The translations under genes were made by a program, and so were the position numbers. A stretch of 64,000 nucleotides of DNA, taken from positions 8,888 through 72,887 of the forward strand of contig DATBLR010000091.1 in the NCBI GenBank assembly GCA_036555275.1, given 5' to 3'. Each line of letters begins with the position of its first letter. The stretch's first letter is position 1. Of the stretch, positions 27,494-50,738 are shown piece after piece. The stretch comes from Gemmatimonadales bacterium. Lineage in GTDB: Bacteria > Gemmatimonadota > Gemmatimonadetes > Gemmatimonadales > GWC2-71-9. The notes under the pieces are model-generated. The model made no database searches. It was not told the origin of the DNA and was given only the letters and a program-made list of their open reading frames with translations.

Positions 27494-27506
27494 GGGCGTC
27501 GGGTCT

Positions 27507-27622: not shown

Positions 27623-27623
27623 C

Positions 27624-29903: not shown

Positions 29904-29926
29904 GTGGAGAACGGTTCCTGAAAGGA

Positions 29927-30956: not shown

Positions 30957-32530
30957 CGGGCCACGTCCACCGCTCGGGTCTCGCGAATGACGACCACCTT
31001 GATCTGGCCGGGATACTGCAGTTCGCCCTCGATCCGCCGGGCGATCTGGTCGGAGAGCGTCACCGCCTGGGTGTCGTCCACCTTGTCCGGCGTCACGATG
31101 ACCCGGACTTCCCGGCCGGCCTGGATCACGCTGGACTTCTCCACGCCGGGGAAGCTGTTGGCGATTTCCTCCAGCATGGTCAGCCGCTTCACGTAGCTCT
31201 CAAATGCTTCCCGTCGGGCACCCGGCCGGGACCCGCTGATCGCATCGGCGGCCTGCACCAGCACCGATTCGGCGCTCTCGTGGGGCACATCGTCGTGGTG
31301 GGCGTGGATGCAGTTGATAACCAGGGGACTTTCCCCGTACCGGCGCGCGACATCCACGCCCAGCTCCACGTGGGTGCCCTCGCTCTCGTGGGTGAGCACC
31401 TTGCCGATGTCGTGCAGGAGCGCGCCCCGCTTGGCGAGCTGGACATCGAGGTGAAGTTCGGCCGCCAGAATGCCGGCCAGCCACGCCACTTCCTTGGAAT
31501 GGTCGTAGATGTTCTGGCCGTAGGAGGTGCGGTAACGCATCCGGCCGATCAGCCGGATCAGTTCCGGGTGCAGGCCATGAACGCCGGTTTCGAACGCCGC
31601 CTTCTCCCCCAGCTCCTGCATCTCGGTGGCCAGGTCCTTCTCGGCCTTGGCCACCAGTTCCTCGATCCGGCCCGGATGGATCCGGCCATCCGTGATCAGG
31701 GCTTCGAGCGAGCGCCGGGCCACCTCGCGGCGTACCGGATCAAAACAACTGATGATCACCGTGTCCGGGGTGTCGTCGATGATCACGTCCACGCCGGTCG
31801 CCTGCTCGAAGGCGCGGATGTTCCGCCCTTCCCGCCCGATGATGCGCCCCTTCATTTCATCACTGGGGAGAGCCACCGCCGACACGGTCGTTTCGGCCGT
31901 ATGCTCCGCGGCGATGCGCTGCACCGCAAGGGCCACGATCTTCCGGGCGTCCTTGTCGGCCGCCCGCTTGGCCTGTTCCCGGATTTCGCGGGCCAGCGCC
32001 TGGGCCTGGCTCCGGACCTCGTCCTCGACTCGCTGCAGGACCTCCCGGCGAGCTTCCTCCGCCGTCAGCCCGGCAATCCGCTCCAGCCGTTGGCGCTGCT
32101 CCTGCAGCAACTGCTCGACCTCGGTCTCCCTCTCCCGCAGCGTTGCGTCCCGCTGGGCCAGGGCCACTTCGCGCACCCCGAAGCCCATCTCCTGGCGCCG
32201 CACCTCCTCCAACTTCCGCTCCAGCGAGCTGTCCCGCTCCTCGGCCCGCCGCTCGAACCGGTCCCATTCCTCGCGCCGGCGCTGGGCCTCCTTGTCCAGA
32301 TCCTCGCGCAGCCGGAGGATCTCCATTTTGCCTTCGAGGACGATCTGGTTGCGGGCTTCGTGGGCCTTGTTGCCTGCCTCGGCGACCAGGCTCTGTGCTT
32401 CCTTGCGGGCGGCGTCCAGGGTGCGCGCCGCGCCTTGCCGCTGGATCCGGCTATAGAGGAGGAACACCACCATGGCCACGACGAGACCGGCAATGAGCCC
32501 CTCGGCGAGGGGCAGCTGGAGCGGCGACAT
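30953..32530 (-). CDS. rny: ribonuclease Y (TM - coiled coil - KH - HD)
   Basis: ORF 30953..32653. Likely start is [25 protein letters not shown] at 32530. KH ([13 protein letters not shown]) and HD (LLHDIGK). Confidence 0.92.
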
Positions 32531-32644
32531 GCGATCTATTCTCCAGGAGCGCGCCGGGCGGCACAGCTCCATCGTGGACATCGGGATGACAACGACACGA
32601 CAATGTGTGTGTTGGGCCCGCACGGGCCCAGGGCCTGCACAAGT

Positions 32645-32690
32645 GGGCCGCATGCATGCGGCCCCTACCCTGGATGCGGCTCCTACCCTG
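32645..32690. repeat. GC-rich palindrome family member (GGGCCGCATGCATGCGGCCCCTACCC + partial second copy) between zapA and rny
   Basis: gggccgcatgcatgcggcccctaccctggatgcggctcctaccctg read directly. Confidence 0.85.
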
Positions 32691-33009
32691 GAATACCGTG
32701 TGAACCCGACGCCCGTCGGCCGCGTTTGGCCGGCGGCAGTAGCCGGGCCAGATCGTCCGCCATCGCGTTCAGACGTGCTGCGTGCTCCCGGTCCCCTCGC
32801 CGGGCCTGAAACAGCTCGTCGGTGATGGCCAGGGCAGCGAGAATCGCCGCCTTGTGGGTTTCGACCTGGGGTAGCATCTCCCGGATGCGGCGCAGAGCGG
32901 CGTCGACGTAGGCCGCCACCTCCCGGGTGTACTCCGGCGGCAGTTCTGACCGGACGGTGTAATCCTCACCGCCGATGGTCACCCGTACGGCATGTTTCGG
33001 CGGGTTCAC
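32683..33009 (-). CDS. zapA: cell division protein ZapA
   Basis: ORF 32683..33231. Likely GTG start at 33009 forms a GTGA overlap with the upstream stop. VTIGGEDYTVRSELPPEYTREVAAYVDAALRRI. Confidence 0.8.
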   Translation of the reverse strand: MNPPKHAVRVTIGGEDYTVRSELPPEYTREVAAYVDAALRRIREMLPQVETHKAAILAALAITDELFQARRGDREHAARLNAMADDLARLLPPAKRGRRASGSHGIPG

Positions 33010-33317
33010 GCGGCTCCCTCGTCGGCGTCCTGCTCCAGAAAGCCAAGCCGGTTGGCCAGCATTCGCAGCCGGTCCCGGGCCGCGTCCATCCGCTCCCGGA
33101 AGGCCTGGTTTTCGACCTCCAGCTCGATCAGCCGCTGCCGGGACTGGATCAGCTCGGGTCCCGCCAGCACTCCACCCTTGGCCCGCGCCTCGGCCAGTTC
33201 GGCTTCCGCCTTGAGCGAGCGGCGCCGCCACGCCGCCAGCTCCTCTCCCACGTACTGCAGGAGGTCGCCCAGCTCCTGGACCGCTTTGGCGTCAGGACGT
33301 TCGTAGGCGTGCGTCAA
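33006..33317 (-). CDS. coiled-coil protein upstream of zapA (ZapB-like, hypothetical)
   Basis: 103 aa, heptad-rich (AELAEARAKG...LIELEVENQAFRERMDAARDRL), translationally coupled to zapA. Confidence 0.55.
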   Translation of the reverse strand: MTHAYERPDAKAVQELGDLLQYVGEELAAWRRRSLKAEAELAEARAKGGVLAGPELIQSRQRLIELEVENQAFRERMDAARDRLRMLANRLGFLEQDADEGAA

Positions 33318-35667
33318 GTTCCTGCTCCAGGGTTTTCAGCAGACGGCTCACCAGCCCGTCCACTTCCTCGTCGCGAACCGTCCGATCCGGCGCCCGCACC
33401 GTGAGGCGGAACTGGACCGCCCGGCGATCGCTTCCCAGCTCGTCGGACCGGAACTCACTCACCACGTCCACCGACTCCAGCAGTGCGCCACCGGCCCTGC
33501 GCATCGCACGCACCACATCACCCGCGGAGGTCCCCGCGGTAAGGATCAGGTTCAGGTCCCGCCACGAAGACGGGGTAACCGGGAGTGCACTGTAGCGCGG
33601 CGCCGGTCGCGGAGCATCGCTCAGGTCCAGCTCGAAGCCGAGCACCGGACCCGCCCACGCGGGCGGGGTGATGTCGAGTCGTTCGGCCCGACCCACCCGC
33701 TCTCCCGCTGCTGTTTCCGCGATCCAGCCCTGCGAATGAACTTGCACGGTCGCTGCCGGATTTGCCAGAGCCACTGCGGCCTCAAAGAGGGACTTGAGAT
33801 CCCACAGATCGAAGTCCCGCGTCTTGCCGCTCTCGGTCCAGTGGGGCGGAACCCGGGAGCCGCTGATAACGCCGGCGACCCGGATTCTCTCCACCGGGCG
33901 ACCATCGCCGCGGCCCTGGCGGAAGGTGATGCCGATCTCGAACAGCCTGATGTCCCGCACCTGCTGCGACCAGTTGGCCGCTACCGCCCGACTCAACCCG
34001 CCGAGCAGAGTCTGGCGAAGCCAGGCCTCCTCGGTCGAGAGCGGATTGAGCAGCTTGACGCTGCCAGGACCCTCGTTGGGCCCGAGCGGCAGCGACTGGG
34101 CTTCCAGCAGGCCGAGCGCCGCCAGACCGTCCCGCACCCGGGCGATGGCCTGGTCCATCGGGGAGTCGCCCAACCGCCCCACCCGATAGGGACGGAGATC
34201 GGTCGGAAAGCTGTCGTACCCATGCAGCCGGGCGACCTCCTCGATGAGGTCGATCTCGGCGACCAGGTCGGGCCGCCACCCCGGCACATCCACGGCCAGC
34301 CGTCCATCCTCCGGCTTGTTGAGCACCGTGCAGCCGATGGCAACCAGGTACTTCTCGATCGCCGCCACCGGAAGGGGCGCGCCCAGGACCTGCGCCACTC
34401 GTGCGACGCGCAGAAAAATCCGTGGCGGGTTGACCGGCCTGGGCCAGACATCCACCCCGTCCTCGATCCGTCCGCCGGCGGTGGCGACGATCAGGGCGGC
34501 GGCACGCCATTGCGCTTCCGGCAGCCCCCACAGATCCACGCCCCGCTCGAAGCGATAGGACGCATCGGTCGAAAGGCCCAGGCTGCGCCGGGTCCGGCGA
34601 ATGCGCGGCGGATCGAACCAGGCGCACTCCAACAGCAGGTCGGTCGTGGTCTCGCTGACCTCGGTGTTTGCGGCCCCCATCACGCCACCCACTCCGATCA
34701 GCCGGTTCGCGTCGGCGATTCCGGTCATCTCGGCAGTCAGGGTCCGTTCGACCCCGTCCAGCGTGGTGACTTTCTCCGAGCCCCGCGCCCGGCGCGCCAC
34801 GACCATGGGGCCCTCGAGCCGGGCCAGATCGTAGGCGTGCATGGGGTGATTCAGCTCCAGCATGACGTAGTTGGTGACATCCACCACGTTGTTGATGCTG
34901 CGCACACCGGCGGCCTGCAACCGATCGACCAGCCAGCCGGGTGAGGGCCCGATCTTCACGCCGCGGATCACCGTCGCGGTGAATCGCCGGCATCCCACGG
35001 CATCGTCGGTCCCTACGGTCACTCCGGCCACCGTGCCTCGCGCCGCCTCAACCCGCCGGAGCGCACCCATGCCCTCGGCCGGAATCCCGGGGATCTCCGG
35101 TAGCCTGAAGGGCACGCCGTAGCTCTGCGCCACCTCCCGCGCCACGCCCTTGTGACCGAGCAGATCCGGTCGGTTGGGGGTGATGTCCAGCAACAGCCGA
35201 TCGTCTCCGACGGGGAGCGCCGTCAGGAGCGGCGTTCCCGGCGTCGCTTCGGTGTCCAGCTCCAGAATGCCGTCGTGGTCCTGGCCCAGACCCAGCTCCC
35301 GGGCGGAGCAGAGCATTCCTTCCGAGAGCTCGCCGCGAATCTTGCGACGCTCCAGCGTCACCCCACCCGGGAGCGTGACCCCGACCCGCGCGAACGGGTA
35401 CTTCCTCCCGGCCGTGACGTTGGGCGCACCGCACACCACCTGGCGCCGGGCCCCCGAGCCGTCGTCGACTTCACACAGGGTCAGCCGATCGGCGTTGGGA
35501 TGGGCACGCACCGATTCCACGAGCCCCACTACCACCTGTTCCAGCCCCGGGTGCAACGGCTCGATGCCGTCCACGGACACTCCGAGCATGGCGAGGCGCG
35601 CGGCCAGGTCGCCGACGTCGAGTGGGCGGCGCAGGAACGCCTCGAGCCAGCGGCGGGAGAGGTTCAT
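33292..35667 (-). CDS. pheT: phenylalanine--tRNA ligase beta subunit
   Basis: ORF 33292..35811. Likely start is MNLSRRWLEAFL at 35667. tRNA-binding, B3/4 and B5 domains and C-terminal anticodon-binding-like domain recognisable. Confidence 0.93.
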   Translation of the reverse strand: MNLSRRWLEAFLRRPLDVGDLAARLAMLGVSVDGIEPLHPGLEQVVVGLVESVRAHPNADRLTLCEVDDGSGARRQVVCGAPNVTAGRKYPFARVGVTLPGGVTLERRKIRGELSEGMLCSARELGLGQDHDGILELDTEATPGTPLLTALPVGDDRLLLDITPNRPDLLGHKGVAREVAQSYGVPFRLPEIPGIPAEGMGALRRVEAARGTVAGVTVGTDDAVGCRRFTATVIRGVKIGPSPGWLVDRLQAAGVRSINNVVDVTNYVMLELNHPMHAYDLARLEGPMVVARRARGSEKVTTLDGVERTLTAEMTGIADANRLIGVGGVMGAANTEVSETTTDLLLECAWFDPPRIRRTRRSLGLSTDASYRFERGVDLWGLPEAQWRAAALIVATAGGRIEDGVDVWPRPVNPPRIFLRVARVAQVLGAPLPVAAIEKYLVAIGCTVLNKPEDGRLAVDVPGWRPDLVAEIDLIEEVARLHGYDSFPTDLRPYRVGRLGDSPMDQAIARVRDGLAALGLLEAQSLPLGPNEGPGSVKLLNPLSTEEAWLRQTLLGGLSRAVAANWSQQVRDIRLFEIGITFRQGRGDGRPVERIRVAGVISGSRVPPHWTESGKTRDFDLWDLKSLFEAAVALANPAATVQVHSQGWIAETAAGERVGRAERLDITPPAWAGPVLGFELDLSDAPRPAPRYSALPVTPSSWRDLNLILTAGTSAGDVVRAMRRAGGALLESVDVVSEFRSDELGSDRRAVQFRLTVRAPDRTVRDEEVDGLVSRLLKTLEQELDARLRTS

Positions 35668-35670
35668 GTG

Positions 35671-35809
35671 AGGGCAGGCGGGCAGGCGGGCAGGCGGGCC
35701 GGCGGGCCGGCGGACCGGCGAGCGGAGAGCCACCTTCGCGATTCGAGGAGAAGGAGGACAGTACCCGAACGTACGAGCGCGCTCACTGCCCGCCTGCCCG
35801 CCCGCCTGC
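35671..35809. repeat. opposed heptamer-repeat arms, GGCAGGC/GGCGGGC family, inside the pheS-pheT operon
   Basis: Left arm agggcaggcgggcaggcgggcaggcgggccggcgggccggcggaccggcg. Right arm ctgcccgcctgcccgcccgcctgc, which encodes the last residues of PheS. Confidence 0.9.
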
Positions 35810-36943
35810 AAATTGCTCCAAGAACCTCATATCCCCCTCGTACAGCAACCTGATGTCCGTGATGCCATACCGGTTCATGGCGATCCGTCCCGGGCCCATC
35901 CCGAAGGCGAAGCCGGCGTAGCGCTCGGGATCGAGGTTGCAGTTTGCCAGCACGGTGGGATGAACCATCCCTGACCCGAGAATCTCCATCCAGCCGGTGC
36001 CCTTGCAGGCCGCGCATCCGGTTCCGCCGCACACGCCGCAGGTCACGTCCATCTCCGCAGACGGCTCGGTAAACGGAAAGAACGACGGCCGGAACCGGAC
36101 AGCGGTCTTCGCCCCGAAGAACTCATGGGCGAAGTGAATGAGCGTGGCCTTGAGGTCCACAAAGGAGATCCCCTCGTCAACCGCGAGGCCCTCGATCTGC
36201 GCGAACACGGGCGCGTGGGACGCGTCGAAGGTGTCCTTGCGGTAGGCGAGGCCGGGGATGACCACCCGGATGGGCGGCGGCTCCTGTTGCATGACCCGGA
36301 TCTGCACCGGGGAGGTGTGGGTCCGCATCAGCCAGCGACCCTGGTCACGCATCCGTCGCTCGGCCGGCTCGCGGCGCTCAAATCCCGCCTCGACACCCGA
36401 GGTCCGGTTCCTCCGGCGGTCCGCGCCGGAGCGCCGGTCGGGAATGTCGAGGTACAGGGTGTCGTGCATGTCCAGCGCGGGGTGATCCGGCGGAAAATTG
36501 AGCGCCCCGAAGTTGTACCACTCGGTCTCCACCTCGGGTCCGCTCGCGCGGGCAAACCCCAGGCCGTGGAAGATGCCGACGATCTCCTCGATGACCTGGG
36601 TGACCGGATGGGTACCGCCCCCCCACCGCTCCCGGCCCGGCATGGTGAGGTCCAGGCCCTGGGCCGCCCGTCCTTCCGCCTCCCGGATGAGCGCGGCCCG
36701 GCGGGCGGCGAACGCGGCTTCGAGCTCGGCCTTGAGCTTGTTGGCGTTCCCGCCGAGGACCCGCTTCTCGCTCTCGGAGAGTTTCGGCAGGATGGTCTTG
36801 AGGATTTCACTCAGGCGGCCCTGTTTGCGGCCGAGGAGCGAGATGTATTCCGCCTCGAGCTCCCGCTCTCCGAGGGTCGGGATCACCGACAATCGGGACG
36901 CGATCTGCTGCAGGTCGGTGAAGTACTTGGGTTGATCAGACAT
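35783..36943 (-). CDS. pheS: phenylalanine--tRNA ligase alpha subunit
   Basis: ORF 35783..37000. Likely start is MSDQPKYFTDL at 36943. HPALDMHDTLY, LMRTHTSPVQIR, FAFGMGPGRIAM. The C-terminal AGGRAGGQ is encoded by the repeat arm at 35786..35809. Confidence 0.93.
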   Translation of the reverse strand: MSDQPKYFTDLQQIASRLSVIPTLGERELEAEYISLLGRKQGRLSEILKTILPKLSESEKRVLGGNANKLKAELEAAFAARRAALIREAEGRAAQGLDLTMPGRERWGGGTHPVTQVIEEIVGIFHGLGFARASGPEVETEWYNFGALNFPPDHPALDMHDTLYLDIPDRRSGADRRRNRTSGVEAGFERREPAERRMRDQGRWLMRTHTSPVQIRVMQQEPPPIRVVIPGLAYRKDTFDASHAPVFAQIEGLAVDEGISFVDLKATLIHFAHEFFGAKTAVRFRPSFFPFTEPSAEMDVTCGVCGGTGCAACKGTGWMEILGSGMVHPTVLANCNLDPERYAGFAFGMGPGRIAMNRYGITDIRLLYEGDMRFLEQFAGGRAGGQ

Positions 36944-37026
36944 GGAGTTCCGGGCTGACAAGCAACGCGGGGTCACCCACCACCGGGCGGGCGACCCCAC
37001 GGATGGATCTCGGGGTCAGACACGCC

Positions 37027-37380
37027 CTACGCGTGAGCCCGCGCTACCTCGGCGATCTTCGCGAAGGCGTCGATGTCCCTCACAGCCAGGTCGGCCAGAA
37101 CCTTCCGGTTGACCTCGACACCTGCCTTCCGCAGCGCCGCCATGAACCCGCTGTAGTTGAACCCGTGCATCCGGGCGGCGGCGTTGATGCGGGTGATCCA
37201 CAGGCTGCGAAATTCGGTCTTCTTCTTGCGCCGGTCGCGATAGGCATACTGCATCGCCCGCTCGACCGTTTCCTTGGCCGGCTTGTAGAGCTTGCTCCGG
37301 GCGCCACGCGCACCCTTGGCGGCGCGCATGATTTTCTTCTTCCGGGCGTGGTGAGCGACGTTGCTCTTGACGCGAGGCAT
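37027..37380 (-). CDS. rplT: 50S ribosomal protein L20
   Basis: 117 aa. [37 protein letters not shown]. Confidence 0.95.
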
Positions 37381-37390
37381 GGTCTCCTCC

Positions 37391-37585
37391 TTACGCCTGG
37401 AGCAGGCGGTTCACCCGCGGGAAATCGGCCGAGGCCACCAGGGCGCTCTTCTTGAGCCGGTTCTTCCGCTTACGGGTCTTCTTGGTCAGGATGTGCGTGT
37501 GGTTGGCATGAAACCGTTTGAGCTTCCCGGACCCGGTCCGCTTGAACCGCTTCATCGCCGCACGCTTGGTCTTCTGCTTTGGCAT
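37391..37585 (-). CDS. rpmI: 50S ribosomal protein L35
   Basis: ORF 37391..37639. Start is [24 protein letters not shown] at 37585. Confidence 0.93.
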
Positions 37586-37604
37586 CGGTCGTTGGCTTTC
37601 AGTT

Positions 37605-37675
37605 GGCGGACGGGCGGACGGGCGGACGGGCGGACGCACACCTCTGTCCGCCGGTCCGCCATTCCGCCGGTCCGC
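37605..37675. repeat. heptamer-repeat hairpin, GGCGGAC family, between infC stop and rpmI start
   Basis: ggcggacgggcggacgggcggacgggcggacg, then cacacctct, then gtccgccggtccgccattccgccggtccgc. Confidence 0.92.
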
Positions 37676-38197
37676 TCATTTTGGCCCCATCACCATCACC
37701 ATGTTGCGGCCTTCGAGCTTCGCCTCCTGCTCGATCTTGCCGATGTCCGCGAGGCCGTTCGCGAACCGGTCCAGCACCGCTCGGCCCAGCTCGAGGTGAG
37801 CTATCTGCCGCCCCCGATACATCATGGTGACCTTCACCTTGTTGCCGTCCTCCAGGAACTCGCGGGCGTGCCGGCTCTTGAACTCGAAGTCATGCTCCTC
37901 GATGCCGGGACGGACCTTGATCTCCTTGAGGTGAATCACGTGCTGCTTCTTCTTGGCGGCCCGCGCCGCCTTCGCTTCCTCGAACTTGAACTTGCCGTAG
38001 TCCATGATCTTGACCACGGGGGGGCGTGCCGTCGGGGCCACCTCCACCAGATCCAGGCCACGCTCCAGCGCGGCGGCCAGTGCCTCCTCGACCGGCAGTA
38101 CACCCAGCTGCTCGCCTCCGGGGCCGATCACCCGGACCGGGCTGATCCGGATCTGCCGATTGATGCGGACCCGGCGCTCACGCTCGTTAGTGGACAG
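37676..38197 (-). CDS. infC: translation initiation factor IF-3
   Basis: ORF 37676..38293. RINRQIRISPVRVIGPGGEQLGVLPVEEAL...LDLVEVAP...VVKIMDYGKFKFE. The start is uncertain because infC commonly uses a non-canonical codon; 38197 is only a guess. Confidence 0.88.
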   Translation of the reverse strand: MSTNERERRVRINRQIRISPVRVIGPGGEQLGVLPVEEALAAALERGLDLVEVAPTARPPVVKIMDYGKFKFEEAKAARAAKKKQHVIHLKEIKVRPGIEEHDFEFKSRHAREFLEDGNKVKVTMMYRGRQIAHLELGRAVLDRFANGLADIGKIEQEAKLEGRNMVMVMGPK

Positions 38198-38417
38198 TGC
38201 GTCGCTCCCCAGGAAGAAGAAGCCGGACACCCGAGTACCCCTGGGTGTCCGGCGCGCGAAAGTGGGCACGCCCCCGGGCGGCCCACCGGTCATCGCTGGC
38301 TACGGACCCGGTCGCGCCGGCATCTCCGCCGGGCTCGGGGTGGGGGGCTGAACCCCCGCTTTCATGGAACAGGGGCAAAGCTAGCTCGGGAGGCACCGGG
38401 CGGTCAACTAGGGAGCA

Positions 38418-38443
38418 CGAGAGGACGAGAGGACGAGAGGACG
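38418..38443. repeat. short tandem 8-mer array (CGAGAGGA x 3), solo
   Basis: cgagaggacgagaggacgagaggacgg read directly in the gap upstream of infC. Confidence 0.8.
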
Positions 38444-38581
38444 GGCACGGAGCGCGAAGCCGGGCGCCGCGTCAAGCCGCCACGAAACCGGGGCCGGGTG
38501 GGGTGGTATTTGTCGCGGCGGCGAGGCGGCGCCCGGCGAGCGTTTCGCAAGGAGCAGCAGCCCACCGAGACGGTACCGGAC

Positions 38582-39511
38582 TCACGGTGCAGACTTCACG
38601 TCCGTCAGGCCCACGCCCTTCCCGTTCTCGACACACCGCCCCATGGCAACCTGCGGGTCGTGCTCGAAGATGAACCACCAGTTCTCTGCCAGGGCATCGC
38701 GATACAGCGCCCGCTTCGACTCGAGGGTCCGGAGCGGCTCGAGATCGTACCCCATGATGTAGGCCAGTGGCAGATGGGCGCTGGTGGGGATCAGGTCGCC
38801 GAGAAATACCGCCGTTTCATCGCCGCTCGTGACGACGATGCTCTGGTGCCAGGGAACGTGCCCCGGCGTGAGTCGGGCGCGGATGCCCGGCAGGAGGTCC
38901 CGGTCTCCATCGACCAGCTGCCAGCGACCGGCCCCGGCCACCGGCTCGAAGTTGGGGGGCAGGTAGCTGGCCCGGGTCCGCTCATTGGTGTGGCGGGCGA
39001 ACTCGAGCTCGTTCTTCTGGACCACGTAGGTCGCGTTGGGGTAAGCCAGACGGACGGATGGGACGGTCAAGACGGACGCGACGGACGACTCCGTCTTGTC
39101 CGTCCTGTCCGTCTTGTCCGCCTTCACCGTATTCCCCCCCGCATGGTCAAAATGCAGATGAGTATTGACCACCCAACGCACTTCTTCGGGCTGGAACCCC
39201 GCCTCCCGCAGCGCATCCTCGAGCTGGGTCGGGCCCGGGTCGCCCCGATTCTCCACTGCGTAAATGTCGAGGAACTTGGGGTCCTCCTTGTCTCCGAGGG
39301 CCGTATCCACCAGGACCGGTCCGTCGGGGTGCTCGATCAGGAGGCAGCGCATGGCGAGCAGAATCCGGTTGCGATCGTCCGGCGGCACCTTGCGCGACCA
39401 GAGCGGTTTGGGCACCACGCCGAACATGGCGCCACCATCGAGACGCTGCCAGCCGCCTTCGAGGAGGTGGCAGCGGAGGGAGCCCAGGGTAAAGGTTTGC
39501 GAGAGCGCCAT
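38582..39511 (-). CDS. MBL-fold metallo-hydrolase carrying an in-frame repeat-encoded insertion
   Basis: ORF 38582..39553. Likely start is MALSQTFTLG at 39511. Metal motif VVNTHLHFDHAGGN, followed directly by the repeat-encoded KADKTDRTDKTESSVASVLTVPSVRL. Confidence 0.85.
   Translation of the reverse strand: MALSQTFTLGSLRCHLLEGGWQRLDGGAMFGVVPKPLWSRKVPPDDRNRILLAMRCLLIEHPDGPVLVDTALGDKEDPKFLDIYAVENRGDPGPTQLEDALREAGFQPEEVRWVVNTHLHFDHAGGNTVKADKTDRTDKTESSVASVLTVPSVRLAYPNATYVVQKNELEFARHTNERTRASYLPPNFEPVAGAGRWQLVDGDRDLLPGIRARLTPGHVPWHQSIVVTSGDETAVFLGDLIPTSAHLPLAYIMGYDLEPLRTLESKRALYRDALAENWWFIFEHDPQVAMGRCVENGKGVGLTDVKSAP
39049..39122. repeat. heptamer-repeat hairpin, GACGGAC family, inserted in frame inside the MBL hydrolase CDS
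   Basis: gacggacggatgggacggtcaagacggacgcgacggacg, then ac, then tccgtcttgtccgtcctgtccgtcttgtccgcc. Translated within the ORF as KADKTDRTDKTESSVASVLTVPSVRL. Confidence 0.88.
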
Positions 39512-39513
39512 CT

Positions 39514-39580
39514 CGGTACCGCGTACCGAGTACCGCGTACCGAGTACACACATCGTACGCGGTACGCGGTACGCAGTACG
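39514..39580. repeat. heptamer-repeat hairpin, GTACCGC/GTACCGA family, between MBL start and exonuclease stop
   Basis: cggtaccgcgtaccgagtaccgcgtaccgagtac, then acacatc, then gtacgcggtacgcggtacgcagtacg. Confidence 0.92.
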
Positions 39581-39581
39581 T

Positions 39582-40391
39582 TCAGGAAGTGTTCCTCTTG
39601 CGCTGCAGCCCGTTCAGATCTTGCAACGTTCTCACGCCCCGCTCCCGCGCCAGCAGAATCAGCCGGTCCAGCACCTCGGCCGTGGCGAGGGCGTCGCCCG
39701 CGGCCCGGTGCCGGGCCCGATTCTCGAGCCCGAAGTACAGGCTCAAACTGTCCAGGCTCCGCGATTCGAGGTGGGGCAGGAGGCGGCGGGCCAGGCGGAC
39801 GGTGCACAGTCGGGGACCCGTCAACCGGAGCGCCCGGGCGCGACGAATCTCGGCGCTCAGGAACCCCCAGTCGAACCGGACGTTGTGGGCGACGAAGATC
39901 CGTCCGGCCAGCGCGCCGAGCAGCTGGTCCGCGACCTGCTCGAAGCCCGGTGCCTTGGCCACCATGGCCTGGGTGATGTTGGTAAGGCCCTGGATCCGCA
40001 CCGGGATGTGAACGCCGGGATTCACCAGCGACTCGAACACGATCTCGCGGCGCGCGCCCTGCACCACCACGACGGCGACGTCGGTGACACGGTCGGCGCC
40101 CCAGGCCCGCATGCCGGTGGTTTCCACATCGACCACCGCAAAGGCGCACTCCTCCACCAGCGGTGAACCCTGCGCCTCGGCGACCAGCGCCCAGCGCCCA
40201 TCCTCGAGCTGGGTCACCCGCGGGTCCGCCGCCAGCAGAGCCACGGCCAGACGCTCCGCCACGGCGGCCGGCGCATTGACCATGCCGAGCACCTCCCGGG
40301 CCAGGCGCCCGACCTCCAGCGGGCCGCCGGCCATCAGGGTCATGGCCCTTTCCGCGAGGGTCCGGTCAGGGATGCAGGCCAGGCCGGTCAT
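39582..40391 (-). CDS. DEDDh 3'-5' exonuclease (DNA polymerase III epsilon-like)
   Basis: 269 aa. FAVVDVETTG, FVAHNVRFDWGFL, RHRAAGDALATAEVL. Start overlaps the arginine deiminase stop by 4 nt. Confidence 0.85.
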   Translation of the reverse strand: MTGLACIPDRTLAERAMTLMAGGPLEVGRLAREVLGMVNAPAAVAERLAVALLAADPRVTQLEDGRWALVAEAQGSPLVEECAFAVVDVETTGMRAWGADRVTDVAVVVVQGARREIVFESLVNPGVHIPVRIQGLTNITQAMVAKAPGFEQVADQLLGALAGRIFVAHNVRFDWGFLSAEIRRARALRLTGPRLCTVRLARRLLPHLESRSLDSLSLYFGLENRARHRAAGDALATAEVLDRLILLARERGVRTLQDLNGLQRKRNTS

Positions 40392-41620
40392 GTCGCACCG
40401 CGCCGCAGCGGCAGGGTCATGCAGCGCGGGCCACCCCCGCCCCGGACCAGCTCGTCCCCGTCGACGGTGATGACCGTGCGGTGCTTGGTATCGAGCCAGT
40501 CGTCAAAGGCGACGAAATCCACGCTGGAGACCGGCCGGAAGCCCGCCTGCTTCAGGGCCTCGATGGTCTCCTCGTTGCGGCGGTAGCCCACCACCATCCC
40601 GGGCTTGAGAGCCACCATGTTGCAGCCCGAGGCCCACTGTTCCCGCTCCTGCATCGAGCGGTGGGTGCCACCGGCGAAGATCGGGGTGAGCGGGCACCCG
40701 ACCTCCCGCAGGGCAGCGAAGAAATCCGGCATTTCGCGCACTCCGTCATGGCCCTTCTTGCGGTGCAGCACGGCCAGGCGCTCCGGGCCGATGAAGTAGG
40801 GCGGGTACACCACGCACAGCTCCCGATCCACCTGGGTGAACAGCATATCGAGATGGATCGCGGTCGGTTCCTTCGGCATCACGACCACCAGCACGTCGCT
40901 GACCTCGGTCCGCTCGAACAGCACCTCGGTGAGGTGATCGATGGCCGAGGGAGTGGATCGTTCGCTGAAGCCGATCACCAGGAGGTCCTGTCGCAGCATG
41001 TGAATGTCACCACCCTCGAGGGTGTAGTCGCTGCGCCGCTCCTCCGACCCATCGTACAGGAGCCCTTCGTTCCCCAGCGCGGGGTGGAACGCGAACAGGG
41101 TCTTGATGAGCAGCTCCTCCGTCCAGCGCACGCCGTGGCGCATCGACCCCACCACCGCGTGCCGGCCGATGATCACCCCGATGTCACGGGGGAAGAACAG
41201 GTTCGGCAGCGGCGGCAGCATGTAGCCCACTGAGTTGAGCGCCCTGGCAATGGCCCCGCCCTGCTGTTCCACACCCTCCACGATCAACCGCGCCAGGGCC
41301 CGCGGCTCGAGATCGTTGAGTCGCCGGCCCAGCTCACCCTCCGGCACGACATCCAGGGTGGCCCGAATGAAGAATTGCCGCGCGTCCTCCCGCTCCAGGG
41401 CCTCGGCGAGAAGGTCGGCCACCTGGTAGACCGTGGCGAACCGCTGCAGCACGGCCACGAACCGGCGATGCTCCCGTCGAGCGCTCTCGACCTGAATGAT
41501 GTCGTCGTACAGATAGGCGCCTTTGTTGCCCGGCGTTACCGCACGAAGCTCCGCCCCCGGCGTGTGGACGAGCACCGCTTCCAGCAGGCCGATCTCGCTC
41601 GTGACGTTGAGGGGGGGCAT
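40388..41620 (-). CDS. arginine deiminase family protein
   Basis: 410 aa. N-terminal VTSEIGLLEAVLVHTPGAEL, C-terminal GGGGPRCMTLPLRR (catalytic Cys motif of the guanidino-modifying superfamily). Confidence 0.8.
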   Translation of the reverse strand: MPPLNVTSEIGLLEAVLVHTPGAELRAVTPGNKGAYLYDDIIQVESARREHRRFVAVLQRFATVYQVADLLAEALEREDARQFFIRATLDVVPEGELGRRLNDLEPRALARLIVEGVEQQGGAIARALNSVGYMLPPLPNLFFPRDIGVIIGRHAVVGSMRHGVRWTEELLIKTLFAFHPALGNEGLLYDGSEERRSDYTLEGGDIHMLRQDLLVIGFSERSTPSAIDHLTEVLFERTEVSDVLVVVMPKEPTAIHLDMLFTQVDRELCVVYPPYFIGPERLAVLHRKKGHDGVREMPDFFAALREVGCPLTPIFAGGTHRSMQEREQWASGCNMVALKPGMVVGYRRNEETIEALKQAGFRPVSSVDFVAFDDWLDTKHRTVITVDGDELVRGGGGPRCMTLPLRRGAT

Positions 41621-41636
41621 GGCTTGAGAAACTAAT

Positions 41637-42170
41637 AGCGTTCAGGGTTCAGCGTTCAGGGTTCAGGGGGGCCGGTGCGGGCGCTCGGGCGAGACCGCGA
41701 AGGGACGTTGACATCCTCGCTAGCATGCGGCCAACCTCCGACGCGAGTCCGAGCAGGGTGTCGGCATCAGCTCTAGCCAGGTAGCCTACCCGGTGCGCCA
41801 CGAGGACCTGCGTCTCCAGCTCAAGCAGCGACCCGTTGGCGATCGAGAGATGACGGAGGTACTCGCGACGTGAGGAGCGCCCGTAGCCCTCGGCGATATT
41901 GCACGGTATCGAGACCGATGCCCGCCGCATCTGGGCGCTGAGGCCGTACCGCTCATGATCTGGGAATCGAGTGGCCTCTTTGTACACGGCTTCCGTCAGC
42001 TGCATGGCCCTGACCCAGACGGTCAGGCGCTGATGACCCCGACGGACCCTGATTCTATCCATGACGAGGAAGGTGACGCCCACCGCATTCGGCCGGGCGA
42101 CCACAATGACGCCGCACAGCCCACGGCAACGCACACCCTCTGCACGCTGAACCTTGCACCCTGAACGCTC
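41637..42170. repeat. opposed GTTCAG(C/G)G heptamer arms (41637-41671 and 42136-42170) enclosing the four-helix-bundle gene
   Basis: Left arm agcgttcagggttcagcgttcagggttcagggggg. Right arm ccctctgcacgctgaaccttgcaccctgaacgctc. The whole ORF lies in the loop. Confidence 0.85.
41649..42062 (-). CDS. four-helix-bundle protein (23S rRNA intervening-sequence protein / Avd-like family)
   Basis: ORF 41649..42134. Likely start is MDRIRVRRGHQRLTVW at 42062. Signature ERYGLSAQMRRASVSIPCNIAEGYGRSSRREYLRHLSIANGSLLELETQV. Lies between opposed GTTCAG(C/G)G repeat arms, and its last codons are repeat-encoded. Confidence 0.85.
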   Translation of the reverse strand: MDRIRVRRGHQRLTVWVRAMQLTEAVYKEATRFPDHERYGLSAQMRRASVSIPCNIAEGYGRSSRREYLRHLSIANGSLLELETQVLVAHRVGYLARADADTLLGLASEVGRMLARMSTSLRGLARAPAPAPLNPER

Positions 42171-42174
42171 GGCT

Positions 42175-42801
42175 TCACCGATTCGTCAACGCATAACTCA
42201 ACGTCTCCAGCTCCAGCGCCAGGTTAACCGTCTTGACCACCACATCATCGGGCACCGAGAGCTGGACCGGCGTGAAATTGAGGATCGCCTTGACCCCCTG
42301 CGCGACGCACCGCTCGGTAACCTGCTGGGCCACGTCGCCCGGCGTGACGATCACCGCGATCTCCACCGGGTGCAGGCGCAACTCGGCGTCCAGATCCCTC
42401 ACGTCCTTCACGGTCAGGCCGTTCCACGCCCGACCAATCTTGGTGGGGTCGGAATCGAAGATCGCCACGATCTCGAAGCCACGCTGTCGGAACCCCCGAT
42501 ACTGTACCAGCGCGCTGCCGATCTTCCCGGCTCCGATCATCGCGACCCGGTACACACGGCCCAGGCCGAGAATCTCCCGGAGCCGGCGTACCAGCTCCAC
42601 CACCGAATAGCCCAGCCCCCGCTTGCCGAAGGACCCGAAGAATGAGAGGTCCTTGCGCACCTGAGCCGACGTCGTCCCACCCCTGGCAGCAAGGGCTCCG
42701 GAACTGACGGTCTCGATGCCCTGCCCCTCGAACTCCTCCAGGAAGCGCAGGTACAGCGAGAGACGGCGAACGGTGGATTCGGCGATTTTCCGCATCGGCA
42801 T
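42175..42801 (-). CDS. rex: redox-sensing transcriptional repressor Rex
   Basis: ORF 42175..42939. Likely start is MPMRKIAESTVRRLSLYLRFL at 42801 (or 42795). Winged helix plus Rossmann fold (VAMIGAGKIGSAL). Confidence 0.92.
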   Translation of the reverse strand: MPMRKIAESTVRRLSLYLRFLEEFEGQGIETVSSGALAARGGTTSAQVRKDLSFFGSFGKRGLGYSVVELVRRLREILGLGRVYRVAMIGAGKIGSALVQYRGFRQRGFEIVAIFDSDPTKIGRAWNGLTVKDVRDLDAELRLHPVEIAVIVTPGDVAQQVTERCVAQGVKAILNFTPVQLSVPDDVVVKTVNLALELETLSYALTNR

Positions 42802-42818
42802 TGTGAAAGTTTTCACAA
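42801..42818. promoter_or_regulatory. Rex operator (perfect TTGTGAA-N4-TTCACAA palindrome) abutting the rex start codon
   Basis: Sequence TTGTGAAAGTTTTCACAA read directly at 42801-42818. It matches the established Rex box consensus TTGTGAAnnnnTTCACAA. Confidence 0.75.
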
Positions 42819-42853
42819 ATCTACTCGAATGCCTCGGCCGGGCAAAGGGACTG

Positions 42854-43648
42854 CTATTCGGGCAGGATGGAGACGGGGATCGCGCGATACAGACGGGCGA
42901 ACGTATCGGGGCCCAACTCGCCCGGTCGGATGGTCTCATGGAGACCGACTGAGGCCAGCCAGCTGACCACGTCGGAGACAGGTGCTCCGGTGAGGTCCCG
43001 GAGGGCGCGACTCAGTTGTTTGCGCCGGAAGCCGAACAGCCCAACGACGAACCGCCGGAAGGGGGCGATCTCCGCGTCGCTCACCAGCGGCTCCGGCCTC
43101 GGTCTCAGCCTGAGCACGGCCGAGCTCACCTTGGGGCGAGGCCGAAACGCTCCGGCGGGGACCGTGAACAGCCGTTCCACCGTCGTGACGGCCTGAACCC
43201 CCACGCTGAGAGCCCCATACTCCGCAGTCCCCGGGAGCGCCGCGACCCGATCTGCCACCTCCCTCTGCACCAGGTAGACGATGCAGACCGGCCGGGGTGG
43301 GCGCAGCGCCTTCTCGAGCAGCGGGGAGGTGATGTTGTAAGGGATGTTCCCGATGACGCGGAAACGTCCCTGCCCGACCAGCGCGTGCCAGTCCAGCTCG
43401 AGAGCATCACCGTGGATCAACGTGAGGTTGGGAAAATGTTGCCGCAGATGGGCGAGGAACGCCTGGTCCTTCTCGATCGCGAAGAGGTGCGGGGTCCGGG
43501 TTGCGAGCTGAGCGGTGAGACCACCAGGGCCCGGGCCGATCTCCAGGACAGCCTCGTCCCCCTCAATCTCCAGGGCGTCCGCGATGCGCCGGAGGATGCC
43601 AGGGTCGTAAAGGAAGTGCTGGCCGAGGCGTTTCTTGGGGCGGGGCAT
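42854..43648 (-). CDS. rsmA: 16S rRNA (adenine1518/1519-N6)-dimethyltransferase
   Basis: 264 aa. KKRLGQHFLYDPGILRRIADAL, VLEIGPGPGGLT. Confidence 0.92.
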   Translation of the reverse strand: MPRPKKRLGQHFLYDPGILRRIADALEIEGDEAVLEIGPGPGGLTAQLATRTPHLFAIEKDQAFLAHLRQHFPNLTLIHGDALELDWHALVGQGRFRVIGNIPYNITSPLLEKALRPPRPVCIVYLVQREVADRVAALPGTAEYGALSVGVQAVTTVERLFTVPAGAFRPRPKVSSAVLRLRPRPEPLVSDAEIAPFRRFVVGLFGFRRKQLSRALRDLTGAPVSDVVSWLASVGLHETIRPGELGPDTFARLYRAIPVSILPE

Positions 43649-43722
43649 GGGAGAACGGGGAACAGGGAACGGGGAACGGGGGAACGTAGCGACCGTTCCC
43701 CGTTCCCCGTTCCCTGTTCTCC
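43649..43722. repeat. heptamer-repeat hairpin, GGGGAAC family, between rsmA start and PP2C stop
   Basis: gggagaacggggaacagggaacggggaacgggggaacg, then tagcgac, then cgttccccgttccccgttccctgttctcc. Confidence 0.92.
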
Positions 43723-43727
43723 GCAGT

Positions 43728-45290
43728 TTAGATCCGCATCACCAGCAGCGTCCGGTCGTCGGCCGGCTGAGCGGTTGCCTTGTCCGCCTCCCGGAACACC
43801 GCACGGACAATCGCGTCCGGCGGGTCGGCCCGGCGGCGGACGATCTCGGCGAGGAGCCGTTCCTCGGTGAACTCCGACTCCCCGCCCTGCTCGATCAGCC
43901 CGTCGGTCCACAGGCAGAGCAGATCCTGCTTCGGGATCCAGGCTACCTGTTTCCGCTGGATACTCGCCGCGGCCGCGAGTCCGAGGGGAGGCGCGGTCGT
44001 TGGCAACCGCTCGGGGTCCCCCTTGGCCGGCACCCGGAAGGCGTGCGGATGCCCGGCGTTGGCATAGGTCAGGCGGCGGTGCTTCGGATCGAGTTCTCCA
44101 TAGAAAACCGAGAGGAACATCTCGGTTGAGGCCAGCTCGTCACCCAGGCTCTCCAGCATGGAAGCCAGGACCTCATCGGGCCTGTTGCCGCCGCCGGCGT
44201 GGATGCCGGCCGCGGACATGACGAGGGCCATGACCAGGGCCGCCGCGAAGCCGTGGGAGGACACATCCCCCAGCATCACTCCAACCCGGCCGTTGCCGAG
44301 CCGGGTGAAGGTGTAGAAGTCGCCGCCGACACTGTCCACCGGGCGGCAGATCGCCGCGACCTGGGCGTCCCCCTGCAGCACGCCGGGGGCCGGGAGCAGC
44401 TTGAGCTGGAGGTCATGGGCCAGCTCCAGCTCCCGCTGCAGCCGCTGGCGACGGAGATCCCGCTGGACCAGCCTGGCGTTCTCGATGGCGGCGCCGATCT
44501 GGTTCGCCACGGCGGAGACCAGCTTGGCGTCCGAGGGCATGAAGCTGTCGCCCAGGAGCCGCTCGGTGAGGTTGATGACCCCAACACAGCGGCCGCCCGG
44601 ACCGTAACAGATCGGGATGCTGAGAAACGCCTGGCTCTTGTAGTCGCGGGCGTCCTGGGAGCCGAGGTTCTGGGCCGTGGGATCTGTTGGGTCGAAGACG
44701 ATGATCCGCTTTTCGCGGAACACGCGCGCCGCCACCGAATGGGGATCGTCGGTGGCTACGGGGAGGAGTCCTTCGGGCGAGAAGCCGCGGGCGGCGACGG
44801 TGCGGAGCAGTCCGGTCGCCTCGTCGTGCACCATAATGGATGCCCGCCGCGATCCCACGACATCCGCCACTTCCTTCACGATGGTCGGCGCAGCCTCCTC
44901 CAGCCGGGTCGTGTGGCCGAGGATTTCGCTGATCGCGTAGAGGAGGTCGATCTCCTTGTAGACGCCGGCCAGCTCGTCGACCACCCCGGCGGTATCCCGC
45001 TCGACCCCCAGGAAGGCGCCCAGGATGCCGGCCAGTTGCGGGGCGACCTCCGCCGCGCGGGCCTGGGGCAGGTCCCCGACTTCCAGCCAGTACCCGTTCG
45101 TGTCAGGTACGGGGGCCAGCCACACGCTGCCGGTGGGGGTAGGGACAAGCCCGGGAGCCAGCGGGATCGGCGGGGTGAATCCGGGATCGGGGCCCGTGCC
45201 AAACCGGCGCAGGGTCCGCCCGTCATACCGCCAAAGCCGCACGCGGGCTCCCGCGAGGGCGCCCAGGGCATCCGCGACGGACTCAAGGCC
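43728..45290 (-). CDS. GAF domain-containing PP2C/SpoIIE-family serine phosphatase (RsbU-like)
   Basis: C-terminal two thirds of ORF 43728..45806. GAF region, then PP2C motifs (GGDFYTF, GVMLGDVSSHG, LCLWTDGL). The ORF's N-terminal ~170 aa overlap the RsbW-like gene in another frame, so the true start lies near 45290 and its codon is unresolved. Confidence 0.8.
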   Translation of the reverse strand, partial: GLESVADALGALAGARVRLWRYDGRTLRRFGTGPDPGFTPPIPLAPGLVPTPTGSVWLAPVPDTNGYWLEVGDLPQARAAEVAPQLAGILGAFLGVERDTAGVVDELAGVYKEIDLLYAISEILGHTTRLEEAAPTIVKEVADVVGSRRASIMVHDEATGLLRTVAARGFSPEGLLPVATDDPHSVAARVFREKRIIVFDPTDPTAQNLGSQDARDYKSQAFLSIPICYGPGGRCVGVINLTERLLGDSFMPSDAKLVSAVANQIGAAIENARLVQRDLRRQRLQRELELAHDLQLKLLPAPGVLQGDAQVAAICRPVDSVGGDFYTFTRLGNGRVGVMLGDVSSHGFAAALVMALVMSAAGIHAGGGNRPDEVLASMLESLGDELASTEMFLSVFYGELDPKHRRLTYANAGHPHAFRVPAKGDPERLPTTAPPLGLAAAASIQRKQVAWIPKQDLLCLWTDGLIEQGGESEFTEERLLAEIVRRRADPPDAIVRAVFREADKATAQPADDRTLLVMRI

Positions 45291-45292
45291 CG

Positions 45293-45769
45293 TCAGCGGC
45301 GGCGCAGTGTCATGCAGATGGAGTTTCCTTGTGCGTTGAAGCGGACATCGTCGACCAGGTTCTTGATCAGGAAGAGCCCGCGGCCGTTGGGTCGATCGAG
45401 GTCGTCGGGCAGGATGGGCGTGGGGACCGCCGCCGGGTCGAAGCCGGGGCCCTGGTCGGTGACCTCGATGCGGATCTCGTCCCCGCACACCTCGGCCTGG
45501 ACCTGGACCCACTTGGAGCGATCCTCCTGGTTGCCGGCGACGATCGCGTTCGCCAGGGCCTCCGCGGTCGCCACCCGCAGGTTGAAACGGGACCGGCGGC
45601 ACAGCCACCCGCCGTCGCAACAGTGCCGCATGAGAAGGTCCACCACCTCTTCGATACAGGCGACGTCGCTGGGTACCCGCAGCGAGACCTGCACCATCGC
45701 TCCGGTCGGGCCGGGCACCCGGCGGCGGCGCACGCACAGCCTCAGGGAGGCGGGAAGCGGAGCCGTCAT
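45293..45769 (-). CDS. anti-sigma regulatory factor, serine/threonine kinase (RsbW/SpoIIAB-like HATPase)
   Basis: 158 aa. ATAEALANAIVAGN, IEVTDQGPGFDP, GRGLFLIKNLVDDV. Start overlaps the STAS gene stop by 4 nt (an alternative start is MVQVSL at 45697). Confidence 0.82.
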   Translation of the reverse strand: MTAPLPASLRLCVRRRRVPGPTGAMVQVSLRVPSDVACIEEVVDLLMRHCCDGGWLCRRSRFNLRVATAEALANAIVAGNQEDRSKWVQVQAEVCGDEIRIEVTDQGPGFDPAAVPTPILPDDLDRPNGRGLFLIKNLVDDVRFNAQGNSICMTLRRR

Positions 45770-46107
45770 CCGGCGAAGCTCCCGACCGCCCGTTCTGCCG
45801 TGTCACTGATGGCGAACAACGTGTCCAGCTTGGTCAGCTCGAAGAGTGACCGGAGATCCTCGTTCAGCCCCGAAAGCCGGAGCTCCCCGCCCTGCTCGCG
45901 GACCTTCTTGGAAATCGACACCAGGGCACCGAGCCCGGAGGAGTCGATGTACCCCGTGCGGGAGAAGTCGATGACAAACCGGCGTTCGTCGTGATCGAGG
46001 GCCTGCTGCACTGCCGTCTTGAGCTCCTGCCGGTTGCCGACGATCAACTGACCCTCGACCCGGATCACGTAGACGCCGGCCTGGTCTTTAGTGGCGGTGA
46101 ATGGCAT
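45766..46107 (-). CDS. STAS-domain anti-sigma-factor antagonist (RsbV/SpoIIAA-like)
   Basis: 113 aa. FVIDFSRTGYIDSSGLGALVS (phosphorylatable Ser context), LRLSGLNEDLRSLFELTKL. Confidence 0.88.
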   Translation of the reverse strand: MPFTATKDQAGVYVIRVEGQLIVGNRQELKTAVQQALDHDERRFVIDFSRTGYIDSSGLGALVSISKKVREQGGELRLSGLNEDLRSLFELTKLDTLFAISDTAERAVGSFAG

Positions 46108-46137
46108 GAGGCTCCTCAGAGCGGGCGGTCGACTGCT

Positions 46138-46275: not shown

Positions 46276-46295
46276 AGCCCTCACCCGACCCTCCT

Positions 46296-50708: not shown

Positions 50709-50738
50709 GCAGCGTCCTCGGAATAAGAGACCAAGAGA

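Follow-up and report, generated by a model that had tools for sequence, protein, structure and literature searches.

A tandem-unit hairpin within an MBL-fold hydrolase gene of a Gemmatimonadales bacterium, probably grown in place

A 64-kb stretch of DNA from an uncultured soil Gemmatimonadales bacterium (contig DATBLR010000091.1; the whole stretch is referred to here as the window) contains a gene for a metallo-beta-lactamase (MBL)-fold hydrolase in which a hairpin of tandem 9-nt units is read in frame directly after the metal-binding motif. The most probable account of this element, at a probability of about 0.72, is that it is an insertion of tandem repeats, able to form a hairpin, in the beta-turn loop that follows the HxHxDH motif, that it is one of a lineage-wide class, and that it has grown in place and is tolerated as a disordered loop. 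An earlier note on this DNA had already reported a hairpin-capable element at this point of the MBL open reading frame (ORF) and its translation in an unbroken frame, and both observations are confirmed by folding and by the ORF translation.

The element spans 39049-39124 (76 nt), directly after the codons for HLHFDHAGGN in the minus-strand ORF. The plus-strand letters of 39046-39124 are CCAGACGGACGGATGGGACGGTCAAGACGGACGCGACGGACGAC followed by TCCGTCTTGTCCGTCCTGTCCGTCTTGTCCGCCTT, and the translation of the ORF (38582-39511) across the element, HLHFDHAGGNTVKADKTDRTDKTESSVASVLTVPSVRLAYPNATYVVQKNELEF, contains neither a stop nor a change of frame; the region reads HLHFDHAGGNT VKADKTDRTDKTESSVASVLTVPSVRL AYPNATYVVQ. 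In the mRNA sense, the 5' arm (39090-39124, minus strand) is made of 9-nt units GACAAGACG or GACAGGACG and encodes the peptide KADKTDRTDKTE; on the plus strand this is TCCGTCTTG, for which Tandem Repeats Finder (TRF) gives a period of 9, 3.9 copies and 88% matches. The 3' arm (39049-39087, minus strand) is made of NNNTCCGTC units, which on the plus strand are of the GACGGAC type with period 9 and 4.5 copies, and encodes SSVASVLTVPSVRL. Although the repeat had earlier been called a heptamer, the period is thus 9 in both arms, and the 7 nt are only the core (GACGGAC/GTCCGTC), to which a 2-nt spacer is added. The units lie in codon register (GAC AAG ACG, or DKT), and the arm cores TCCGTC and GACGGA occur four and three times, respectively, within the element.

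The two arms pair with each other in both DNA and RNA folds. As DNA, the element folds at -27.4 kcal/mol (z -3.85, with none of 200 shuffles equally good), and as the mRNA strand at -54.2 kcal/mol (z -5.25). Compared with shuffles of its own codons it reaches z -5.85, and no other 99-nt segment of the MBL gene is as stable (-55.0 versus a median of -34.4 kcal/mol). No T-run is present 3' of the element.

The host gene (38582-39511, minus strand) encodes a 309-residue protein that matches PF00753 (E 4e-21, 76 bits) and carries the metal motif HLHFDH, of the HxHxDH type. Its start is placed at the ATG at 39511 because the database protein P0001, which is 99% identical, begins there with the same residues (MALSQ). 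The closest solved structures are Staphylococcus aureus 3ESH (E 5e-35) and the N-acyl homoserine lactone (AHL) lactonase AiiA (E 2.5e-18), and the AlphaFold model of the protein resembles 3ESH with a template modelling (TM) score of 0.84 by Foldseek. By its sequence and modelled fold, the alpha-beta/beta-alpha sandwich of this family, the product is an AiiA/3ESH-like MBL-fold hydrolase of the lactonase type, with a predicted lactonase activity.

Relative to orthologous enzymes, the segment is a lineage-specific insertion into an ancestral turn of 9-10 residues, because distant orthologs and relatives in the PDB keep a short, fixed turn. Loop length was compared across 80 genomes and at least 80 metagenome loci; the metagenome relatives among the matches listed are at most 67% identical, and the DNA of close relatives was fetched individually. 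The stretch from HxHxDHAGG to A-x-Y-V-V-Q measures 45-48 nt in most of the relatives compared, including Gemmatimonadaceae, Longimicrobiales, Nitrospira, Acidobacteriota and others, with a peptide pattern of xRDxxGxxxLxFP. The alignments to 3ESH and AiiA cover both flanks and omit query residues 132-154. A short loop is also found in the close relative L173. An ancestral loop would have left a homologous segment in unrelated taxa, and these carry the short turn instead. Between GGNT and AYPNAT there are 27 residues in the window and 9-10 in orthologs without the element, so the net gain is 17-18 residues and not the 25-26 first proposed. The outermost repeat units coincide with native codons (R-A-D ... 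V-R-L).

Closer homologs are far more variable at this position. Among 121 aligned proteins (the query with the 120 homologs closest to it, which belong to Gemmatimonadales wherever a name is given), the loop has at most 14 residues in 36, forms a distinct 16-residue loop in 19, and has 17-50 residues in 66. The insert peptides of close orthologs differ in length (17-50 residues), sequence and composition, and share no conserved peptide. In 62 of the 66 long inserts, however, residues with purine-rich codons (K, E, G, D, R, N) are enriched in the N-terminal half and residues with pyrimidine-rich codons (P, S, L, F, V) in the C-terminal half, because a G-rich arm and then a C-rich arm are read in frame. 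Insert sizes are mixed across a neighbour-joining (NJ) tree of the 121 proteins built with the loop left out, a tree that is itself poorly resolved.

In the AlphaFold model of the host protein (mean predicted local distance difference test, pLDDT, 79; predicted TM score, pTM, 0.85), the insert is a low-confidence coil (pLDDT 44-56) between strands 128-130 and 153-155. It would thus form a disordered surface loop in an otherwise intact MBL fold, its exposure being suggested by the low model confidence and by its position at the tip of a beta-hairpin. The outcome that the earlier note had envisaged, a palindrome that adds a surface loop to an enzyme, is supported to this extent, with the exposure taken from a predicted structure.

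DNA was fetched for 14 close relatives; these and further loci compared (labels from the series L001, L010, L083 and L161-L173) show how the insert changes. Over 11.6 and 8.9 kb, respectively, L161 and L162, two independent Joint Genome Institute (JGI) metagenome contigs, match the window at 99.86% identity, and the sole indel is one extra 9-nt unit in their 5' arm, at about 39104, which lifts the hairpin to -66.7 kcal/mol. In other species, the hairpin at exactly this MBL site has the unit GGCGGACAA with period 9 in L001, L163, L164 and L165, and the unit GGCGGACG or GGCGGAAT with period 8 in L166 and L168; the accompanying 3' arms are of the GTCCGCC or CCGCCGAG type. The arms change together. 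GACGGA is paired with TCCGTC in the window, L161, L170 and L010; GGCGGA is paired with TCCGCC in L001 and L165, where the change affects all units of both arms; and GGCGGA is paired with CCGCCGAG in L163, L166 and L168. At the same codons, L169 carries a period-7 hairpin of another family (GCCGATT... / ...CAATCGG, z -4.2), with a GTCCGCC remnant on its 3' side. In L010, the ortholog is 64% identical, and hairpins are absent from its nearest relatives; it carries a GGACGG hairpin of its own (z -3.5), which appears to derive from local G-D-G codons.

Pairing is also lost at this site. L164 has lost its 3' arm, and the long loops of L164, L171, L172 and L083 no longer fold (z -0.2 to -1.3); to judge from these decayed inserts, the gene can probably do without pairing. 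L167 has a short loop, LKAAEAPSRLAF, that looks like a contracted relic, and L173 keeps an ancestral-type LRSGTGVRLGF without a hairpin. A natural series is therefore available at one site: empty (L173), reduced to a short relic (L167), strong (the window, L161, L165 and L169) and decayed (L164 and L171). To this series are added differences in unit number between strains and joint changes of the arms between species. The MBL loop is a hotspot of hairpin inserts of varying length, period and unit family. In two long-read metagenome-assembled genomes (MAGs), L163 (855-2086) and L168 (793-2827), gene calling splits or fuses the ORFs of arginine deiminase and RNase T; sequencing errors may have caused frameshifts, and gene calls there need care.

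The in-gene element is one of many. The window, with a G+C content of 68%, contains 12 tandem-unit hairpins and several unpaired arrays, mapped against gene boundaries placed by a heuristic based on G+C at third codon positions (GC3). Unit sequences vary by locus (GGGGAAC, CAGGGTW, GCGTTCA, GGGCAGGC, GGCGGACG, GTACCGN, GCTATCR and CGGGAGGGG), as do periods, which are mostly 7 and sometimes 8. A period of 9 occurs almost only in coding DNA, namely in both MBL arms, both arms of a RecJ tail and an array at 53090-53118, although the numbers are small; the single exception, at 63937-63959, lies 76 nt beyond a gene start on the crude gene map. Hairpin centres are 2-147 nt long, and those of seven hairpins in the window are unique and mutually unrelated. 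Intergenic hairpins either overlap the stop codon upstream of them or begin 0, 1, 1, 4, 4, 4, 10 or 16 nt beyond it. Across the fetched loci, hairpin density falls with the divergence of the MBL ortholog (3.05, 1.57, 0.38, 0.25 and 0.15 per 10 kb); the trait belongs to this part of the Gemmatimonadales.

The arms also have a marked polarity. Among 61 hairpins from the window and the loci L001-L168, near-identical strains excluded, the G-rich arm is 5' in 50, the order is reversed in 6, and 5 are neutral. This G-5'/C-3' order holds on both strands because the architecture of a hairpin is its own reverse complement. One possibility is that it reflects avoidance of a C-rich, G-poor 5' arm, which would load Rho, on transcripts from either strand. 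A G-quadruplex account of the G-rich arms was set aside, as many unit families, GTACCGN, GCTATCG and CAGGGTT among them, have no G-runs.

The spacer next to the MBL gene illustrates the class. Between the stop of an RNase T-like exonuclease gene (39582) and the MBL start (39511), a tandem-heptamer hairpin (39516-39580; GTACCGN ×4.6 / NCGGTAC ×3.7) fills 39512-39581. All nine relatives sequenced there have a heptamer hairpin, and its units shift jointly in both arms. GTACCGN is found in most of them; L163 and L173 have GTGCCGA/GTGCCCA with TGGGCAC/TCGGCAC, L165 has CGCGTTC with GCGGAAC, and L164 and L168 contain second unit families in nested positions. Nearby, a hairpin of 8-nt units (GGCGGACG ×4 / GTCCGCCG ×3.8; 37605-37675) begins 0 nt after the infC stop (37676) and reaches -68 kcal/mol over 101 nt. 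Its core, GGCGGAC, differs at one position from the in-gene GACGGAC and is the unit found in the MBL-loop inserts of most orthologs.

Further intergenic hairpins occur at 27524-27622 (heptamers CAGGGTW/CAGCGTA, 1 nt after the upstream stop), 29940-30070 (heptamers GCGTTCA / CTGAACG, 4 nt after the stop, with a unique 71-nt centre), 43641-43723 and 58090-58233 (both of GGGGAAC units and 4 nt after a stop), and 46139-46279 (GCTATCR units, with a unique 74-nt centre). In the pheS-pheT spacer (35672-35806), a hairpin of 8-nt units (GGGCAGGC / CTGCCCGC) overlaps the last pheS codons with its first arm. An Rfam scan of the whole window found one tRNA only, with no RNA family matching the hairpins. 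A scan for canonical terminators and promoters showed no enrichment; in 27001-47000 it gave 8 sites against 7.0 expected, none of which is a tandem-unit hairpin, and the intergenic tandem-unit hairpins have no T-tails. The hairpins therefore do not qualify as intrinsic (Rho-independent) terminators, in which a U-tract comes after a GC-rich hairpin.

Arrays without an inverted partner are also present. A perfect direct array of CGGGGAA (×7.7, 19881-19934) lies 26 nt from a tRNA gene (19770-19855, minus strand), and others are GAGGACGA ×3.9 (38413-38443), GTTCAGG ×4 (41637-41668) and AGCCGTC ×5.4 (50738-50775). Between Rex-like and arginine deiminase genes there is a small four-helix-bundle gene (PF05635, 23S_rRNA_IVP / bAvd-like; 41649-42005, minus strand; 3507-3863 in L161). 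It is inverted in L163 and L165, truncated in L164 and absent in L167 and L173, and therefore behaves like a mobile or unstable cassette.

Tandem-unit hairpins repeatedly enter conserved genes in frame, as seen in MBL, MutS2, RecJ and RecN. The MutS2 ORF (52590-55340, minus strand) contains an in-frame hairpin (54027-54114, minus strand; arms CTCGCCGGCTCGGCCGGC / GCCGCCGAGCCGAGCCGCCGAG) that corresponds to an insertion of ~31 residues after RHPLL (LAGSAGPPGPASLPSRATEPSSRRAEPPSRP); Bacillus subtilis MutS2 (8qpp) aligns to query residues 44-344 and 376-849 and leaves ~31 residues unmatched. Within the insert, the peptide PSRRAEPPSR agrees with what the 3' arms of the L163 and L166 MBL inserts encode. 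In the same gene, complementary 8-nt arrays occupy linkers (52839-53070, minus strand; GGCGGACC ×4.6 at 52857-52893 and TCCGCCGA ×3.8 at 53041-53070). These arms are 147 nt apart and flank a small SH3/KOW-like domain, with linker lengths that match those of B. subtilis. This pair cannot be an inserted element because the hairpin centre is a native domain, and the arms thus arose around existing sequence.

Three other proteins end in hairpin DNA, with the stop codon inside or directly after the hairpin. The RecJ tail is a period-9 hairpin (48223-48292, minus strand; CGGGAGGGG / CCCGCCGCC) that encodes AEAGAAGEAGAAPAPPAPSASSAPPV before the stop; in this protein of 610 residues the OB domain extends to residue 579, and the last ~25 residues, ending in AAPAPPAPSASSAPPV and the stop, are the read-through hairpin. 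A large GGGGAAC-unit hairpin between convergent genes (22846-23089) supplies with its last array (23055-23089) the C-terminal tail of RecN, KGERGTGKGERE before the stop. The C-terminal GGRAGGQ of PheS, followed by the stop, is encoded by the first arm of the pheS-pheT hairpin (35786-35806).

Growth in place would start from a short native inverted repeat, here codons for R-(A/S)-D ... V-R (GCGGAC ... GTCCGC). Arrays would then grow and shrink by replication slippage, and the complementarity of the arms would be kept by arm-to-arm templated correction or by selection for pairing. The class occupies nearly all spacers between genes, beginning at the stop codon, and extends into any coding DNA that tolerates change, such as C-terminal tails, linkers and surface loops. 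For the enzyme, the 17-18 extra hydrophilic residues would be a tolerated passenger and not an adaptation. The 9-nt period may persist in genes because each slippage event then preserves the reading frame. The contrast with the periods of 7-8 in spacers fits a filter of this kind, and the coding arrays of MutS2 show that a period of 8 is able to persist as well.

Several observations weigh against growth in place or would fit other histories equally well. At the empty site of L173, the inverted repeat that would serve as the seed has little length and pairs imperfectly, and the nucleation step is one that we infer. The NJ tree, being so poorly resolved, would also fit a single ancient insertion that was later lost exactly on repeated occasions. 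The different unit family of L169 at the same site could equally reflect the insertion of foreign units, as could the nested intergenic hairpins of L164 and L168. The copy search covers 64 kb of the genome, and dispersed copies elsewhere are possible. The covariation of the arms may stem from selection on some role of the RNA or DNA, and the gene boundaries in the window rest on the GC3 heuristic. A wider proposal is more tentative: a lineage-specific, sequence-independent process may extend short native inverted repeats into long palindromes of 7-9-nt tandem units with co-evolving arms, the G-rich one always 5', fill all unconstrained DNA, and repeatedly and independently create disordered loops, linkers and tails in conserved proteins (the MBL hydrolase, MutS2, RecJ and RecN) without a mobile element. 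We regard this as possible, if somewhat doubtful.

[quoted passage not shown] RPEs are a precedent for in-frame palindromes (PMC10969869), and repeated insertion would fit both the other unit family of L169 at the same codon position and the nested hairpins of L164 and L168. Unit families are also shared by several loci, with GGCGGAC at 37605 and 52857 and GGGGAAC at four loci. However, a blastn-short search of the 64-kb window with the in-gene element finds only itself, the other hairpins have unique centres that bear no relation to one another, and the MutS2 linker arms surround a native conserved domain and not element DNA. The outermost units of the MBL element are native codons, the ortholog inserts have no peptide in common, and the sole strain-level change is one 9-nt unit. 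The absence of dispersed copies, the unique centres, the native MutS2 centre, the native outer codons and the whole-unit strain differences together argue for growth in place and not for transposition, and a mobile element is an unlikely source. The suggestion of the earlier note that an RPE-like process operates here is probably wrong for most of these reasons, to which the variation of the hairpins among orthologs can be added.

A second alternative is that the hairpin is a functional intragenic structure acting at the level of mRNA or DNA, with the peptide as a by-product. It might, for instance, make translation pause between the halves of the MBL fold, be cut by RNase III, act as a barrier to decay or serve as a non-canonical terminator. 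The arms covary across species, no segment of the gene is more stable than the element, and the intergenic members lie exactly at gene 3' ends; transcript stabilisation has been proposed for the hairpins of cyanobacterial short tandemly repeated repetitive (STRR) sequences (PMC2670836). Yet L164, L171, L172 and L083 keep a long loop after pairing is lost, and ~30% of close homologs have no insert. Together with the missing T-tail, the lack of enrichment of canonical terminators and the lack of an Rfam match, this makes a functional structure quite improbable.

Adaptation at the protein level, in which selection favours a longer, flexible, charged loop near the entrance of the active site and DNA complementarity is incidental to low-complexity codon repeats, has in its favour that the loop directly follows the metal-binding motif and that a period of 9 preserves the reading frame; selected tandem repeats that make disordered regions are known from Borg elements (PMC9879509). 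Yet the pairing is far above that of codon-shuffled controls (z -5.85), the sequence, length and composition of the insert are not conserved, the same architecture occurs in non-coding spacers, and each half of the peptide is no more than the in-frame reading of one arm. This explanation is very unlikely. An assembly or sequencing artefact (a fold-back chimera) is extremely unlikely: palindromes are a known source of chimeric reads and the window is probably from a metagenome assembly, but the element is found in two independent JGI metagenome contigs, where it differs cleanly by one unit, its reading frame is unbroken, and homologous inserts occur in dozens of independent assemblies.

Taken alone, the in-gene element is a modest curiosity; specialist interest lies in the hotspot, the covariation of the arms, their polarity and the repeated invasion of genes. 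In-frame palindromes have so far been a Rickettsia curiosity ascribed to mobile elements, and here a new surface loop has seemingly come from the growth of repeats in place. If sequence-independent growth of hairpins is indeed at work, it would be a route to protein insertions that needs no mobile element. The case makes testable how hairpin repeats originate, how the complementarity of their arms is kept, why the G-rich arm is 5' and how often such DNA becomes protein. In practice, gene calls and alignments for metagenome-assembled Gemmatimonadota genomes will be inflated or broken by these elements. No published description of such hairpin or heptamer repeats in Gemmatimonadota was found in a literature whose coverage is incomplete, which is absence of evidence only.

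Several known systems share some of these features. RPEs are palindromic repeats found in conserved enzyme genes, where they are read in frame and add their peptide at a point that the fold can accommodate (PMC10969869). The MBL element is likewise palindromic and in frame in a conserved enzyme gene, at a structurally permissive site (a low-pLDDT coil). RPEs, however, form dispersed families of about 100-150 bp with a conserved consensus and peptide, whereas the element here has no other copy in 64 kb, consists of 9-nt tandem units whose number varies between strains, varies in sequence, period and length among orthologs, and comes from a different phylum than Rickettsia. Nor does it resemble MITEs, in which terminal inverted repeats surround a conserved core present in multiple copies with target-site duplications, as the seven centres are unrelated and the window holds no second copy. 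REP (repetitive extragenic palindromic) and REPIN sequences are abundant extragenic palindromes at gene 3' ends (PMC3116915). A REP is a conserved sequence of 20-40 nt spread by a RAYT (REP-associated tyrosine) transposase, but only the architecture is shared here, with units that differ by locus and unique centres. No RAYT-type gene was recognised in the window, whose ORFs were not systematically searched for one.

Repeats of short units are a closer match. The heptamer TAACTGA of Beggiatoaceae and cyanobacteria forms abundant arrays next to genes and a few inside ORFs (PMC4679880). That system, however, involves one heptamer, which lies upstream of start codons and is nearly always repeated directly, one inverted set being reported, whereas many unit sequences occur here, mostly as hairpins downstream of stop codons. 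Borg elements contain fast-evolving tandem repeats with periods divisible by 3 that add low-complexity, disordered segments to proteins (PMC9879509). The MBL element is similar in its period of 9 and in the pLDDT of its insert (44-56), but Borg repeats occur in direct orientation only; in the MBL element, the inverted complement comes after the direct array, which gives purine-codon and pyrimidine-codon halves to the peptide.

Cyanobacterial STRR sequences are 7-bp repeats with several families per genome that form hairpins between co-transcribed genes, such as hupS and hupL, and may have a role in transcript stability (PMC2670836). The Gemmatimonadales repeats are like them in having tandem short units, mostly of 7 nt, in an array followed by its inverted complement, and in forming hairpins in the spacers between genes. 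STRR units include CCCCAGT and others, and to our knowledge STRR sequences are restricted to filamentous or heterocystous cyanobacteria. By contrast, the host here is a high-GC member of the Gemmatimonadales, and its units differ from those of STRRs and are 7, 8 or 9 nt long. The strong G-5'/C-3' polarity (50 of 61) and the in-frame entry into MBL, MutS2, RecJ and RecN are further differences. The closest published analogues are thus STRR hairpins for the class as a whole, RPEs for the outcome within the gene, and Borg repeats for the disordered segments that result.

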